A model generated the notes under the pieces. That model was not told where the DNA came from. It ran no database searches and saw nothing but the letters and a program-made list of their open reading frames with translations. From Rhizophagus irregularis (taxonomy: Eukaryota), in contig NC_089429.1 of NCBI RefSeq assembly GCF_026210795.1, positions 2,046,001-2,110,000 on the forward strand: 64,000 nucleotides of DNA, read 5' to 3'. Below, piece by piece: positions 16,512 to 39,750 of the stretch. The position numbers were made by a program, and so were the translations under genes. The stretch's first letter is position 1. Every line of letters starts with the position of its first letter.

Positions 16512-17022
16512 GTCATCGGGCTGGTAGTGTAGTCACTACGTTCCTCCACCTCGGACTCACGTCCTCGCAGTACCTCCTTCCCCCATTCATGGGGGAGGGT
16601 TAACCAAGATCCGTTACTATCCGTTACTACATCTGTTACTAAAAATATACTAAAAAACAGATAAAATAAGGAAAAAGAGAGGAAAATACGATAGAATCAG
16701 AAGGGAGTAACAGATGTAACAGATGTAACAGATATTTCAGAATACTAGGAGAGGACACCCCTCAGAAAAAAGTTTTGATTTTACCCCCCCAGATCTGTTA
16801 CATTCGTTACGATCCGTTACTCTTTCAGGATTCCGTTCGTTATCTTATTGGAGGCAGTGAGATAACAAACCGAGTGAACAGGTAGGTCAATAGCCCCTAG
16901 AAGGTCTGGAAAACCACAGGAGGGTGACCAGGTAGGAGCGCGGATCTTTGGAAAAAATATATTCGGCAATTGAAGATTAGGTAACTATAAATTAGTACTC
17001 GATTTGATAGAATAAAAAAATG
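16512..17022 (+). repeat. Left terminal inverted repeat of copy B
   Basis: Near-perfect reverse complement of 39240-39750; begins GTCATCGGGCTGGTAGTGTAGTCAC, ends at helicase ATG. Confidence 0.95.
16968..16977 (+). promoter_or_regulatory. Putative element promoter motif AATTGAAGAT inside the TIR
   Basis: Same or similar motif precedes most element ATGs (8202, 19594, 22106, 22688, and minus strand 15693, 39285). Confidence 0.55.
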
Positions 17023-19533
17023 GCCGCTCAAGCTCAAGTTATCCCTAAGTTCGGTGAACAAACGAAAGCCTTCAGTATCGATGAGCTTAAACGGCTTATT
17101 GTCGCTGCAAAGAGTATGAGTGACCTCGATCAAGCCAAGAGGTATCTTTGCAGTTATTTCATTCCCTGTGCAGATCCTCATGGGGTTTTCTGGTGGGACC
17201 CGGATAGTAAAAGTTTGAAACACGTTATTGACAAAAATATTGGTAAACTTATCCGTCCAATTACGAAGGCATTCTACACACAACCTGAACAAGGACCCTC
17301 TCAAAAGACCGAGTTTAACATCTACAAATGGTTTATGGTCGAGAATACCGATGTATGTAATGCAACCTGTGATCCCCATAAACAGCGAATCTTCAGATCC
17401 TTAACCGGCCAACTCTATCTAAATATCTTCCCGGGATTCCTCCACGTCTTACGTCCGATATCTACCTTTGAGTCTACAATTCACCTCGCGGTTAAATTTA
17501 TCTTCTCTCACATTCAGGATATCTGGTGTTCGGGTGATTGGAATCTCACTGAGTATATCATCAAGTGGTTGGCCGGTGTATCTGCTGGAAGGAAGATGTA
17601 CTCGATCCTTTACCTGAAATCTGGACAGGGTTGGGGCAAAGGTATTATAACAGATTTCATTCAGCGCAGCGTCCTAGGCACTCAACTCGTTTATAAGACC
17701 AGCGATCCTCAGACGATTCTTGGAAGTTTCAATGGGCAATTACAAGGTAAGATTCTTCTCCTTCTCGAGGAAATGCCCACAGAAAAAAGCCAGTGGAATT
17801 CTCTGTATCGCTCTTTGAAAGATAAAGTAACGAGTGATATAATGGAAATCCATGAAAAATACAAGACGCCAACACATTACAAAAACTTTATGTCAACTAT
17901 CGTCCTTACTAACGAAAATGCTCTCAGAGTGGAGAATGATGACAGGCGCACAGTATTCTTAGATGTGTCACCATCCCGCAAGGGAGACCTCAACTACTTC
18001 AAAAAACTCGGTGACGCTATGAAATACCCAGGCGCCAGTGAGGCATTCTATGCTTACTTGAGAGCCATCGCGGATTCTTACCCAGACTTCAATGGGAATC
18101 CACCACCCATGACAACATCCAAACAGGAACATATCATCTCAACTCTTCCACCGCTATTCCAATTTATAAAGGACACATACCTCGTAATGAAAAATTATAT
18201 GACTGACCTACCTGTTCAAGAATTTTATAGGGTATATACTTCATATTGCGAAACTCATTGCATTTCACCCTTATCAAAGATAAACGCTTCTAGAATCCTA
18301 TCAAATGAGTTAGCTATAAATAGCAAATTAGTTCGTAAAGATAAGAAACCAACCCGAGTCTATAGTATATCCAGGGAGGACCTCTACAAGAAATTCCTCG
18401 GCAAAAACTGGATACATGAAATAGATGAGATAAACATAGAAGGAATAGATGTAGATACTCCCGAGAAGCCCACGTCTGATCCCAAAGCCTTAAAGAAGTT
18501 CTTGGTAAATATATATAGCATTCCTGCTAACAATTCACAAGACGTACAAGAAAAACCCGTTGAGAAAAAATTCAAACCTGTTATCAAAGAGCAACCAGTT
18601 TCCAAAAGGGCGCCTCCACCGCTTCCACCCAAGCCTGACCACTTAAAAGAACGTTTACAAGAGTTAAGGGAAGAACAACCGGATCCCGATGAAGATAATA
18701 ATGAGTCAGGTACCGATGAACCTATAGATAGATTCTCAGATTGTTATCTATCTGACGAGGAACTTGACCAAGAAGAACCCACCCCCGAGCCAGATGACTA
18801 TGACGTTTTAGACGACTTGTTATCAGACTCGGATTCTACAACCGTGGACCCAGTTCTTGAGCAACCCGAGTCACCCGCAGAATCTTCCACAAAATCCGAA
18901 TCCCTCGCAGATTCTAAATTTTCTACAGAACCTGTAGTAGTACCGGCTCCCGAAGAGCAACTTATCCCAGAACCCGACACAGAACCAGAAGTCGACCGGG
19001 ATCCTGAACCAAAGGAAGGCACTCGAGCGCACTGGGCTTGGCATGAAAGACACCGATGGGATCGCAAACCGTGGGTTAAAAATTCAAAGAACCAGGCCTT
19101 CGATGATCTCTACAATACAGGTAAGGAATTATGGGCCAAGTACCAAGACGCGTCAGATGAATACGACTGGGAAATACTCACGTTTGAAGTAGAGGAATGT
19201 CCCACAACACGTATTGAGGACGAGTACCAGTACTACCTTAGGAAAGTAGTAGACCGCTTCAAGGACTGGATCGAATATAATGGATACTTATCTAAGACAC
19301 CTAGCCGTAAAGAACTCGCAGATTTAATAAGAGTATACAAGGATAATCGTGATGCCGAGATTATTCCCACCCCCTCTGGGTATGAAACTATGAGGGCAGA
19401 TAAGGGTAAAGCGCGAGAGATCCCAGAGGAACATCCAAAAACTGATATGGAACGTGAATGGGAGGCCGCCAATGGAATCATCGATGACTGGGACGAAGAG
19501 GATACTGAGGGTGCTATCAACGACATATTGTAA
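17020..19533 (+). CDS. SF3/D5-like replicative helicase with winged-helix domain and long acidic/Pro-rich tail
   Basis: Walker A LKSGQGWGKG, Walker B LLLLEE, motif C IVLTN, arginine finger DDRR; no primase motifs recognised. Confidence 0.88.
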   Translation: MAAQAQVIPKFGEQTKAFSIDELKRLIVAAKSMSDLDQAKRYLCSYFIPCADPHGVFWWDPDSKSLKHVIDKNIGKLIRPITKAFYTQPEQGPSQKTEFNIYKWFMVENTDVCNATCDPHKQRIFRSLTGQLYLNIFPGFLHVLRPISTFESTIHLAVKFIFSHIQDIWCSGDWNLTEYIIKWLAGVSAGRKMYSILYLKSGQGWGKGIITDFIQRSVLGTQLVYKTSDPQTILGSFNGQLQGKILLLLEEMPTEKSQWNSLYRSLKDKVTSDIMEIHEKYKTPTHYKNFMSTIVLTNENALRVENDDRRTVFLDVSPSRKGDLNYFKKLGDAMKYPGASEAFYAYLRAIADSYPDFNGNPPPMTTSKQEHIISTLPPLFQFIKDTYLVMKNYMTDLPVQEFYRVYTSYCETHCISPLSKINASRILSNELAINSKLVRKDKKPTRVYSISREDLYKKFLGKNWIHEIDEINIEGIDVDTPEKPTSDPKALKKFLVNIYSIPANNSQDVQEKPVEKKFKPVIKEQPVSKRAPPPLPPKPDHLKERLQELREEQPDPDEDNNESGTDEPIDRFSDCYLSDEELDQEEPTPEPDDYDVLDDLLSDSDSTTVDPVLEQPESPAESSTKSESLADSKFSTEPVVVPAPEEQLIPEPDTEPEVDRDPEPKEGTRAHWAWHERHRWDRKPWVKNSKNQAFDDLYNTGKELWAKYQDASDEYDWEILTFEVEECPTTRIEDEYQYYLRKVVDRFKDWIEYNGYLSKTPSRKELADLIRVYKDNRDAEIIPTPSGYETMRADKGKAREIPEEHPKTDMEREWEAANGIIDDWDEEDTEGAINDIL

Positions 19534-19618
19534 GCGCTATTTGAGATTATTTCTTTTTTTTTTCGTATATATATAGAAAGATATTATTTATAGTTGAAGA
19601 CAAATCATATACATAAAA

Positions 19619-38708: not shown

Positions 38709-38717
38709 TACCGCCTT

Positions 38718-39242
38718 CTAAAAGTATTCCTCATCATCTGAGTCATCGAGAGATACCTCTCCATTATCTGATTCATCATCCGAGTCGTCAGGAGTGCGAC
38801 CTTCCTTAAGCAATTGGATGTTGTACGTTATTTGAGTCCATTTCTCCCAGTCGGACTCTTGCATTATAAAGCTGCATCTGAGGAGAGCTTTTTCTACTGC
38901 CACCATTCCTGCGAACCTAGTGTATTTTTTCTGATCGGCTTCAATGAAATTGTCAATGGCCTCCCTGTAGTAGTCTACCGCCCTGTCGTATTCCTCCTTG
39001 GCTTCTTTATATCGCTTCCAGAGTACTCGTTCAGCTTCGGCACTCCAGATTGGGTTGACTTCTAGAAGATGTGGTCCAAAATTGCTACTTGGAATACATT
39101 CCAGGATATGGCATACAAGTTTGGGAATTACTGATACTGCGTGCGGGTTTTGGTGGCTTTTTAGGATCTCCCTATTGATACCCGTAAGATCGGGGACTGT
39201 GTAGCTAAAGATTCCTGCCAACTTTTCTACGGTATATGTCAT
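38718..39242 (-). CDS. F-box-like protein with acidic tail (copy B allele)
   Basis: IPKLVCHILECI..LLEVNPIWSAEAERVLWK; ATG is the inner edge of the right TIR. Confidence 0.6.
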   Translation of the reverse strand: MTYTVEKLAGIFSYTVPDLTGINREILKSHQNPHAVSVIPKLVCHILECIPSSNFGPHLLEVNPIWSAEAERVLWKRYKEAKEEYDRAVDYYREAIDNFIEADQKKYTRFAGMVAVEKALLRCSFIMQESDWEKWTQITYNIQLLKEGRTPDDSDDESDNGEVSLDDSDDEEYF

Positions 39243-39750
39243 TTTTTCGTTCTATTAAATCGAGTACTAATTTATAGTTACCTAATCTTCAATTGCCGAA
39301 TGTATTTTTTCCAAAGATCCGCGCTCCTACCTGGTCACCCTCCTGTGGTTTTCCAGACCTTCTAGGGGCTATTGACCTACCTGTTCACTCGGTTTGTTAT
39401 CTCACTGCCTCCAATAAGATAATGAACGGAATCCTGAAAGAGTAACGGATCGTAACGAATGTAACAGATCTGGGGGGGTAAAATCAAAACTTTTTTCTGA
39501 GGGGTGTCCTCTCCTAGTATTCTGAAATATCTGTTACATCTGTTACATCTATTACTCCCTTCTGATTCTATCGTATTTTCCTCTCTTTTTCCTTATTTTA
39601 TCTGTTTTTTAGTATATTTTTAGTAACAGATGTAGTAACGGATAGTAACGGATCTTGGTTAACCCTCCCCCATGAATGGGGGAAGGAGGTACTGCGAGGA
39701 CGTGAGTCCGAGGTGGAGGAACGTAGTGACTACACTACCAGCCCGACGAC
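39240..39750 (-). repeat. Right terminal inverted repeat of copy B
   Basis: Reverse complement of 16512-17022; ends CCAGCCCGACGAC, followed by ATATT. Confidence 0.95.

Follow-up and report, generated by a model that had tools for sequence, protein, structure and literature searches.

A stretch of 64,000 nucleotides of the Rhizophagus irregularis genome (NCBI RefSeq assembly GCF_026210795.1, contig NC_089429.1, forward-strand positions 2,046,001 to 2,110,000; hereafter the window) contains, at its positions 16512-39750, an element that joins a Polinton-type DNA backbone to a Gag-like protein with a predicted capsid (CA) fold and a retropepsin. Genes for a jelly-roll capsid and a cysteine protease were not detected in it, and its gene content and the predicted fold suggest that it probably, though far from certainly, builds retrotransposon-like shells that carry its own double-stranded DNA (dsDNA) and are filled by its packaging ATPase. 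The original prediction, made from the letters of the window, had proposed that a retro-type capsid and maturation protease replaced the morphogenesis module of such an element, and this proposal is supported, being refuted neither by the predicted CA fold nor by the synteny of the block among relatives nor by the search for a jelly-roll gene. The element is called copy 2 below, and a partial second copy to its left is called copy 1. The features on which the argument depends are listed here (ORF, open reading frame; RT, reverse transcriptase; TIR, terminal inverted repeat; TSD, target-site duplication).

16512-17022: left TIR, beginning with GTC, the 5-bp TSD ATATT directly before it
33091-34314, minus strand: A32-like packaging ATPase, its C-terminal domain specific to the family (Pox_A32, E 4e-11)
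34346-35050, plus strand: coiled-coil ORF whose last 19 nt lie over the Gag start; in a sister clade it is joined in frame to CA
35032-36528, plus strand: Gag-like protein, CA fold predicted for residues ~1-295 (AF2 model, structural searches), then a helical or disordered tail, no zinc knuckle
36500-36515, plus strand: A-run at the Gag-protease junction, a predicted frameshift site (A8 in copy 2, A9 in copy 1, A9-A10 in relatives)
36507-37237, plus strand: retropepsin-type aspartic protease (DTCA; Asp_protease_2, E 5e-8), with its own stop and no RT after it
37252-38343, minus strand: rve integrase with a C-terminal chromodomain, premature stop at 37669 in copy 2, a single ORF in relatives
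39240-39750: right TIR, ending with GAC, ATATT directly after it

The identification of the 498-aa ORF at 35032-36528 as a two-lobed retro-type CA with an insertion of ~120 aa is well supported by prediction. The window protein has no Pfam match of its own and a single-sequence search of the PDB was likewise empty, but 154 relatives turned up among the 1.8 billion representatives searched; Retrotrans_gag was matched at E 0.01 or better by 20 of the 48 relatives scanned (three above the cut-off), and a 29-sequence profile had PEG10 CA as its best PDB profile match (E 0.005). The AF2 model (mean pLDDT 75) contains three helices, the insertion in the N-lobe and the other CA helices up to about residue 295. 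Nearly all top rows of a Foldseek search with this model were retro-type capsids (PEG10 CA C-terminal domain, rmsd 2.1-2.2), and in the VIA structural search retroviral, retrotransposon or domesticated Gag capsids that covered both lobes filled the first 37 of 50 rows (Z 9.7-5.0), with Arc and Ty3 among the N-lobe matches and unrelated rows beginning at Z 4.2. The capsid call depends on the uniformity of these top rows and not on the size of the Z values. The structure comparison proposed with the original prediction thus returned a predicted retro-type CA fold for this ORF; all four Ty3/gypsy capsid motifs that it quoted (including PIFHGREDED, EAARWF and QFYRGL) are present in the ORF, which does overlap its upstream gene, and the length given, ~495 aa, is that of copy 1 (495 aa) but not of copy 2 (498 aa), a difference caused by the A9 and A8 runs at the two Gag ends. 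As a separate observation, a small ORF near the TIR of one relative (L012:7555-7899) is similar to the C-lobe of CA (HHalign 59%, E 1e-4) and can be likened to truncated-Gag proteins, which act as copy-number regulators.

Slippage at the A-run may yield a minority Gag-protease fusion. Twenty sequences were examined, 14 of them with an intact Gag end (of the remaining six, copy 2 carries A8 and the rest are broken earlier), and in all 14 a run of A9-A10 stands right before the stop. In 10 of these the -1 frame holds a long ORF with a protease motif, in three it runs open as far as the contig goes, and in one, window copy 1, a stop cuts it. For comparison, no run of seven or more was found at 13 other ORF ends, one of which has a slippery heptamer. 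Contigs from three of four runs have an extra A at 36506. RNA contigs from the one recorded run cover Gag at a depth of ~2 pieces, and likewise a retrotransposon nested in the element (see below), which is not taken as a sign of expression. The spliced coiled-coil-Gag-protease gene models in public annotation differ widely and are taken as predictions. The retropepsin claimed by the original prediction is borne out by an Asp_protease_2 match above the cut-off, with neither RT nor RNase H nor a same-strand integrase behind it, the protease having its own stop and the integrase lying on the opposite strand. Retroelements that assemble and mature particles characteristically conserve such a minority fusion to an intact retropepsin.

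The block is also conserved in position. A metagenome scan with a 12-sequence Gag alignment retrieved 31 loci, 22 of which hold the Gag start; several are near-identical, so that about eight lineages were counted. Their common order, kept down to ~32% Gag identity, is an ATPase head-to-head with coiled coil, Gag and retropepsin, followed by a convergent chromo-integrase. The ATPase lies upstream of Gag in 15 of the 22 loci with a Gag start and in all 14 that have at least 796 nt upstream (the seven without it all have less than 700 nt of flank), the opposite-strand integrase follows the protease in six of seven loci with enough flank, and no Pfam match to RT, RNase H or a capsid family occurs among 122 ORFs of at least 110 aa in these loci. 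Two of the loci, L014 and L012, overlap at 99% across 5.1 kb and have a 123-nt inverted repeat in common; combined, they encode helicase, PolB, small ORFs, ATPase, coiled coil, Gag (35-39% identity), protease and integrase, and a Pfam scan of this near-complete relative, which also bears on the jelly-roll gene sought in full-length relatives, found neither the nested retrotransposon nor a match to a major capsid protein (MCP).

The ratio of nonsynonymous to synonymous substitution rates (dN/dS) points to purifying selection on Gag: it is 0.26 between the window copies, close to the 0.25 of the ATPase, and every one of the 13 locus pairs with dS >0.07 falls at 0.19-0.43, near-identical pairs having been set aside for unstable values (0-2.0 at dS <0.025). 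Given the conserved block, the conserved A-run with its -1 protease and this selection, the Gag-protease block is, on sequence evidence, an integral and selected part of the element and not a nested retrotransposon remnant; the dN/dS and synteny checks that the original prediction had called for both came out in its favor, the block lying between ATPase and integrase without RT. Because L026 (371-901) has a different, YTDTDS-type polymerase fragment beside the same kind of ATPase-Gag block, the block may move as a unit. Capsid regions appear to have been swapped between elements as well, since in L018, L033, P0109, P0110 and P0120 the ATPase N-terminus is 96-100% identical to that of the window, CA merely 44-52%, and the Gag tail and protease are close again. 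All of the listed Gag matches (at least 120), and the best ATPase matches too, are labelled Rhizophagus irregularis by their sources. The IMG/VR scans, with Gag or with ATPase as the query, retrieved nothing closely related, and the six distant A32 loci there (32-46%) had no Gag match; a scan of prokaryote genomes gave one weak, unrelated match, and none of 7988 candidates for long Gag-Pol fusions (1083-3090 aa) scored, which is weak evidence.

A CA tree (quick method, 71 rows, midpoint-rooted, six rows less than half filled) splits into two groups with 98% SH-aLRT each. In the window's clade, which includes every ATPase-linked locus, CA starts at Met1 beneath the overlapping coiled-coil ORF and a zinc knuckle is present in one of 23 proteins; in the sister clade the coiled coil is mostly fused to CA and the knuckle is present in eight of 14 long members. 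Since kin share traits, the pattern of knuckle versus ATPase counts as one contrast.

The element itself is real and its backbone is of Polinton type. The original prediction was right that it is bounded by TIRs and a TSD: the arms (16511-17022 and 39240-39751) are 512 nt each and 99% complementary, and the termini (GTC at 16512, GAC at 39750, ATATT on either side) agree with the TIRs and 5-6 bp TSDs of Polintons/Mavericks. It was also right about the PolB, superfamily 3 (SF3) helicase, A32-like ATPase and rve-chromodomain integrase, the Pfam matches above the cut-off being an SF3-type helicase (DUF5906), DNA_pol_B_2, Pox_A32, rve, Chromo and Asp_protease_2. The rve integrase of Polintons is thus present in the window and in relatives, as is the A32-like packaging ATPase of Polintovirus (Polintoviricetes), and PolB is counted as protein-primed on its DNA_pol_B_2 match, the terminal-protein domain not being confirmed (single-sequence model, pLDDT 32). 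The ATPase has a premature stop at 33517 in copy 2 and 407 aa in copy 1, and its motifs are intact in 43-44 of 44 relatives; 11-nt tandem repeats at 33482-33677 form a variable linker that joins its motor to the C-terminal domain. No double jelly-roll MCP was found, all backbone ORFs >300 aa being otherwise assigned and without a capsid family match in Pfam or PHROG; neither a single jelly-roll penton nor an adenain-type cysteine protease had a match in these databases, with the small ORFs compared by sequence families. An AATTGAA motif, cited in the original prediction as linking Gag to the element, is placed non-randomly in the backbone (six of six sites lie 36-52 nt ahead of an ATG), but the site ahead of Gag lacks the fuller TGAAGAT form, lies inside coding sequence and is kept in only five of 22 relatives; it is weak support for Gag belonging to the element, and the argument was dropped. 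The remaining features are as follows (LINE, non-LTR retrotransposon; LTR, long terminal repeat).

15-16280, plus strand: partial second copy (copy 1), from the LINE to the right end, same gene order as copy 2
17020-19533, plus strand: SF3 (D5-type) helicase, 837 aa, with an acidic low-complexity tail (DUF5906, E 2e-17; PHROG primase/helicase)
19619-21472, plus strand: PolB (DNA_pol_B_2, E 1e-6; polymerase motifs located)
21566-23069, plus strand: three small ORFs (164, 156 and 115 aa), the last F-box-like, with homologs in L019, L030 and L020
23551-31709, plus strand: nested LINE, ~8.2 kb (RRM ORF1, endonuclease, RVT_1, RNase H), broken in copy 2
31794-33107, plus strand: two small ORFs of 194 and 186 aa, both conserved
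38229-39242: DUF5679 ORF (plus strand) and 174-aa ORF (minus strand), driven from the right TIR

The LINE, on the same strand as Gag, contradicts the earlier statement that all other ORFs are small or helical; without it, the span of 16512-39750 leaves a backbone of 15,065 nt, in which the biggest stretch without assignment is 467 nt. GC is ~42% in the element versus ~27% in the flank past 41 kb. The LINE is flanked by a candidate 15-nt duplication (23536-23550 and 31710-31724) and sits inside both window copies, but it is absent in L014 between PolB and the homolog of the 186-aa ORF and so, judged by this comparison, is not part of the conserved backbone; no contig joint that skips it occurs among the matches listed. 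Between the copies, the backbone is ~98% identical (dS 0.02-0.08; integrase, 0.15), the LINE (23551-31709 and 15-8150) ~93% (endonuclease dS 0.24, dN/dS 0.13) and the TIR ~70%. The LINE's greater divergence, together with a 3' junction identical in both copies, fits either a LINE that repeatedly targets the element or recombination between copies. At the right end of copy 1 (15680-16280), the terminal bases are kept and the TIR is only ~65-76% identical to that of copy 2, far under the interior. Copy 1 carries the same block, so the Gag-protease genes lie beside the ATPase in both copies, as originally claimed. The accompanying claim of a complete element is true of both ends and the TSD and untrue of the core genes, copy 2 having premature stops in ATPase and integrase and copy 1 a premature stop in the protease and a frameshift in the integrase. 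Elsewhere in the window, three arrays of an ~82-nt palindromic repeat lie in the AT-rich flank (44498-45700, 52600-53760 and 61650-62530), and 48262-49490 (minus strand) holds a Transposase_21 (CACTA-type) fragment.

With canonical Polintons, adintoviruses and mavirus-type virophages the element shares TIRs, a 5-bp TSD, a protein-primed PolB, the rve-chromo integrase and the A32-like ATPase, and its short polymerase with a separate SF3 helicase resembles the mavirus layout as given in the accessible text of PMC11161782; unlike them, it has a protein of predicted CA fold and an aspartic protease, and no detected double jelly-roll MCP, penton or adenain. Its modelled two-lobed CA is that of Ty3/gypsy elements (Metaviridae) and of the domesticated Gags PEG10, Arc and PNMA2, and as in Ty3/gypsy the retropepsin would be expressed with Gag through a frameshift, which in the window is a predicted one. 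Unlike Ty3/gypsy, it has no RT, RNase H, same-strand integrase or knuckle, has the ~120-aa N-lobe insertion and is copied by a DNA polymerase; the protease stop and the integrase on the other strand leave no single RT-RNase H-integrase pol frame, and no LTRs occur among the repeats listed, the block being flanked by the conserved ATPase and integrase genes.

The closest described element is Rhizophagus MELD virus 6100 (BK012060), which has PolB, an rve integrase, an F-box protein and a protein homologous to the 174-aa ORF, with no hexon or penton listed. Its Gag-Pro is a member of the window's Gag family (by eye, the sequence matches relative P0302). The virus differs in having no ATPase or helicase among its seven listed proteins (the list may be incomplete), and it has a full-length PolB, a TBP, a zinc knuckle and a CA that is fused to the coiled coil and belongs to the sister clade. 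Its Gag-Pro was annotated in 2021/2024 without analysis, in a figure-legend label and one sentence in the available text (PMC8502044; preprint 10.1101/697771; PMC11071296), the sentence remarking on the similarity of refMeld6100 to a retroviral capsid (PMC11071296). The present element is therefore not the first sighting of its kind, labelled once in passing, and the original doubt whether it was undescribed is settled in part: what appears new, from the sequences compared, is the ATPase-coupled Gag lineage, its conserved frameshift and the loss of the zinc knuckle. In the full-text literature covered, which excludes subscription journals and Repbase, no paper was found that analyses a replacement of MCP by Gag, the ATPase pairing or the frameshift. 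Two Polintons of Glomus intraradices, P_Gi1.1 and P_Gi1.2 (PMC4028283, Table S1), come from the same host species and lack MCP, penton and protease, with an ATPase in P_Gi1.2; they are 11-12 kb entries with no Gag noted, likened here by description. The main text of PMC4028283 has 0 occurrences of 'gag' and states that MCP loss often accompanies ATPase loss, the available part of PMC7805220 still reports no MCP for Glomus Polintons, and in the portion of 10.64898/2026.06.19.733378 at hand fungal A32 ATPases group with Polintons and 'gag' has 0 occurrences.

In the mechanism proposed here, slippage at the A-run would produce a minority Gag-protease fusion that co-assembles with Gag, and the protease would trim the Gag tail. 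The protein-primed polymerase and the helicase would make a linear genome, which the ATPase would then pump into the shell, taking the role of the lost zinc-knuckle nucleocapsid, and the chromo-integrase would put the DNA back into the host genome. Because no envelope or lysis gene was detected, particles may move between nuclei in the shared hyphal cytoplasm or via hyphal fusion. ATPase motifs kept in nearly all relatives, with no MCP to serve, count in favor of this proposal, as does the missing knuckle where the motor is present. Caulimoviruses hold dsDNA in CA-type shells. With shell diameters of 45-52 nm, a 15-kb genome would fill ~0.4-0.7 of the shell, and the 23-kb LINE-bearing form fits poorly.

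Several points weigh against this proposal. It is drawn from gene content and a predicted fold, and both window copies are broken. Foldseek gave no match for the Gag model at E 0.001, Z <13 is common for helical models, so that the Gag values are modest, and the agreeing ESM Atlas match has only 122 of 256 features in common. The eight small ORFs were covered by sequence-family scans, which a divergent small jelly-roll protein could escape. Loci were found by a Gag query from one clade, to which ATPase-bearing relatives without Gag are invisible; L035 is rearranged, and L025 (1-3031) encodes a Gag with a zinc knuckle, keeps the A-run and protease, and then has a short zinc-finger-like ORF instead of the integrase. 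No stimulatory RNA structure was found downstream of the A-run (z -1.3 to +2.6 in 13 sequences), so slippage could be transcriptional as well as ribosomal. No CA shell is known to have a packaging vertex, and since BK012060 has Gag-Pro without a listed ATPase, Gag need not always have a motor and both may work apart.

This last point leads to the main rival, shells without motor-driven filling, in which assembly itself encloses the genome, or RNA or integrase is the cargo of the shell, and the ATPase has another job, such as DNA condensation, replication or a step inherited from a jelly-roll ancestor. CA shells in Ortervirales normally co-assemble with nucleic acid, the BK012060 Gag-Pro has a zinc knuckle, and the ATPase's extra C-terminal domain has no assigned role; however, the near-absence of the knuckle from the ATPase-linked clade and the head-to-head ATPase and Gag in about eight lineages, with two polymerase types (L014, L026), make this rival unlikely, if still to be reckoned with.

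Decidedly less probable is an element with no capsid of its own, either a plain transposon or a satellite that a jelly-roll helper packages, with Gag-Pro as cargo (for example, a dominant-negative guard directed at LTR retrotransposons, or a factor in host interaction). The swapping of CA regions among otherwise near-identical elements (L018, L033, P0109), the lone CA-CTD-like ORF in L012 and the interpretation of Glomus Polintons as MCP-losing in the accessible part of PMC7805220 would accord with it, yet a guard needs no conserved frameshift into a catalytically intact protease, and MCP searches in the host fungus were negative as far as the available texts go (PMC7805220; PMC10640383, with nucleocytovirus-type models). 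Nesting does occur in this element, as the LINE illustrates, and in virophages, whose Ngaro elements are the model for a third explanation (PMC8547959, in part), namely that an LTR retrotransposon once nested in a single ancestor left the block behind. That explanation is largely refuted and now barely credible: the block keeps its place and orientation at ~32-45% identity and is under purifying selection, none of the 122 ORFs matches RT, the protease has its own stop, and the listed repeat families include no LTR-like direct repeat that brackets the block.

Beyond the proposal of Gag shells filled by the ATPase stands a tentative view, held with somewhat less confidence than the proposal itself, of a fungal dsDNA virus lineage that may join two realms, with the replication, integration and A32 motor of varidnaviruses and the capsid and protease of retroelements. 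In it the ATPase would pump a protein-primed linear genome into a Gag shell while a sister lineage uses a knuckle Gag without a motor, so that both packaging modes would exist side by side. The capsid gene missing from Glomus/Rhizophagus Polintons was noted in 2014 and still open in 2021, and the evidence points to its replacement and not its loss. If particles hold DNA, capsid-based virus classification would fail in this group, packaging motors and CA shells would turn out to be compatible, and arbuscular mycorrhizal fungi would gain a candidate vehicle that moves DNA among nuclei.

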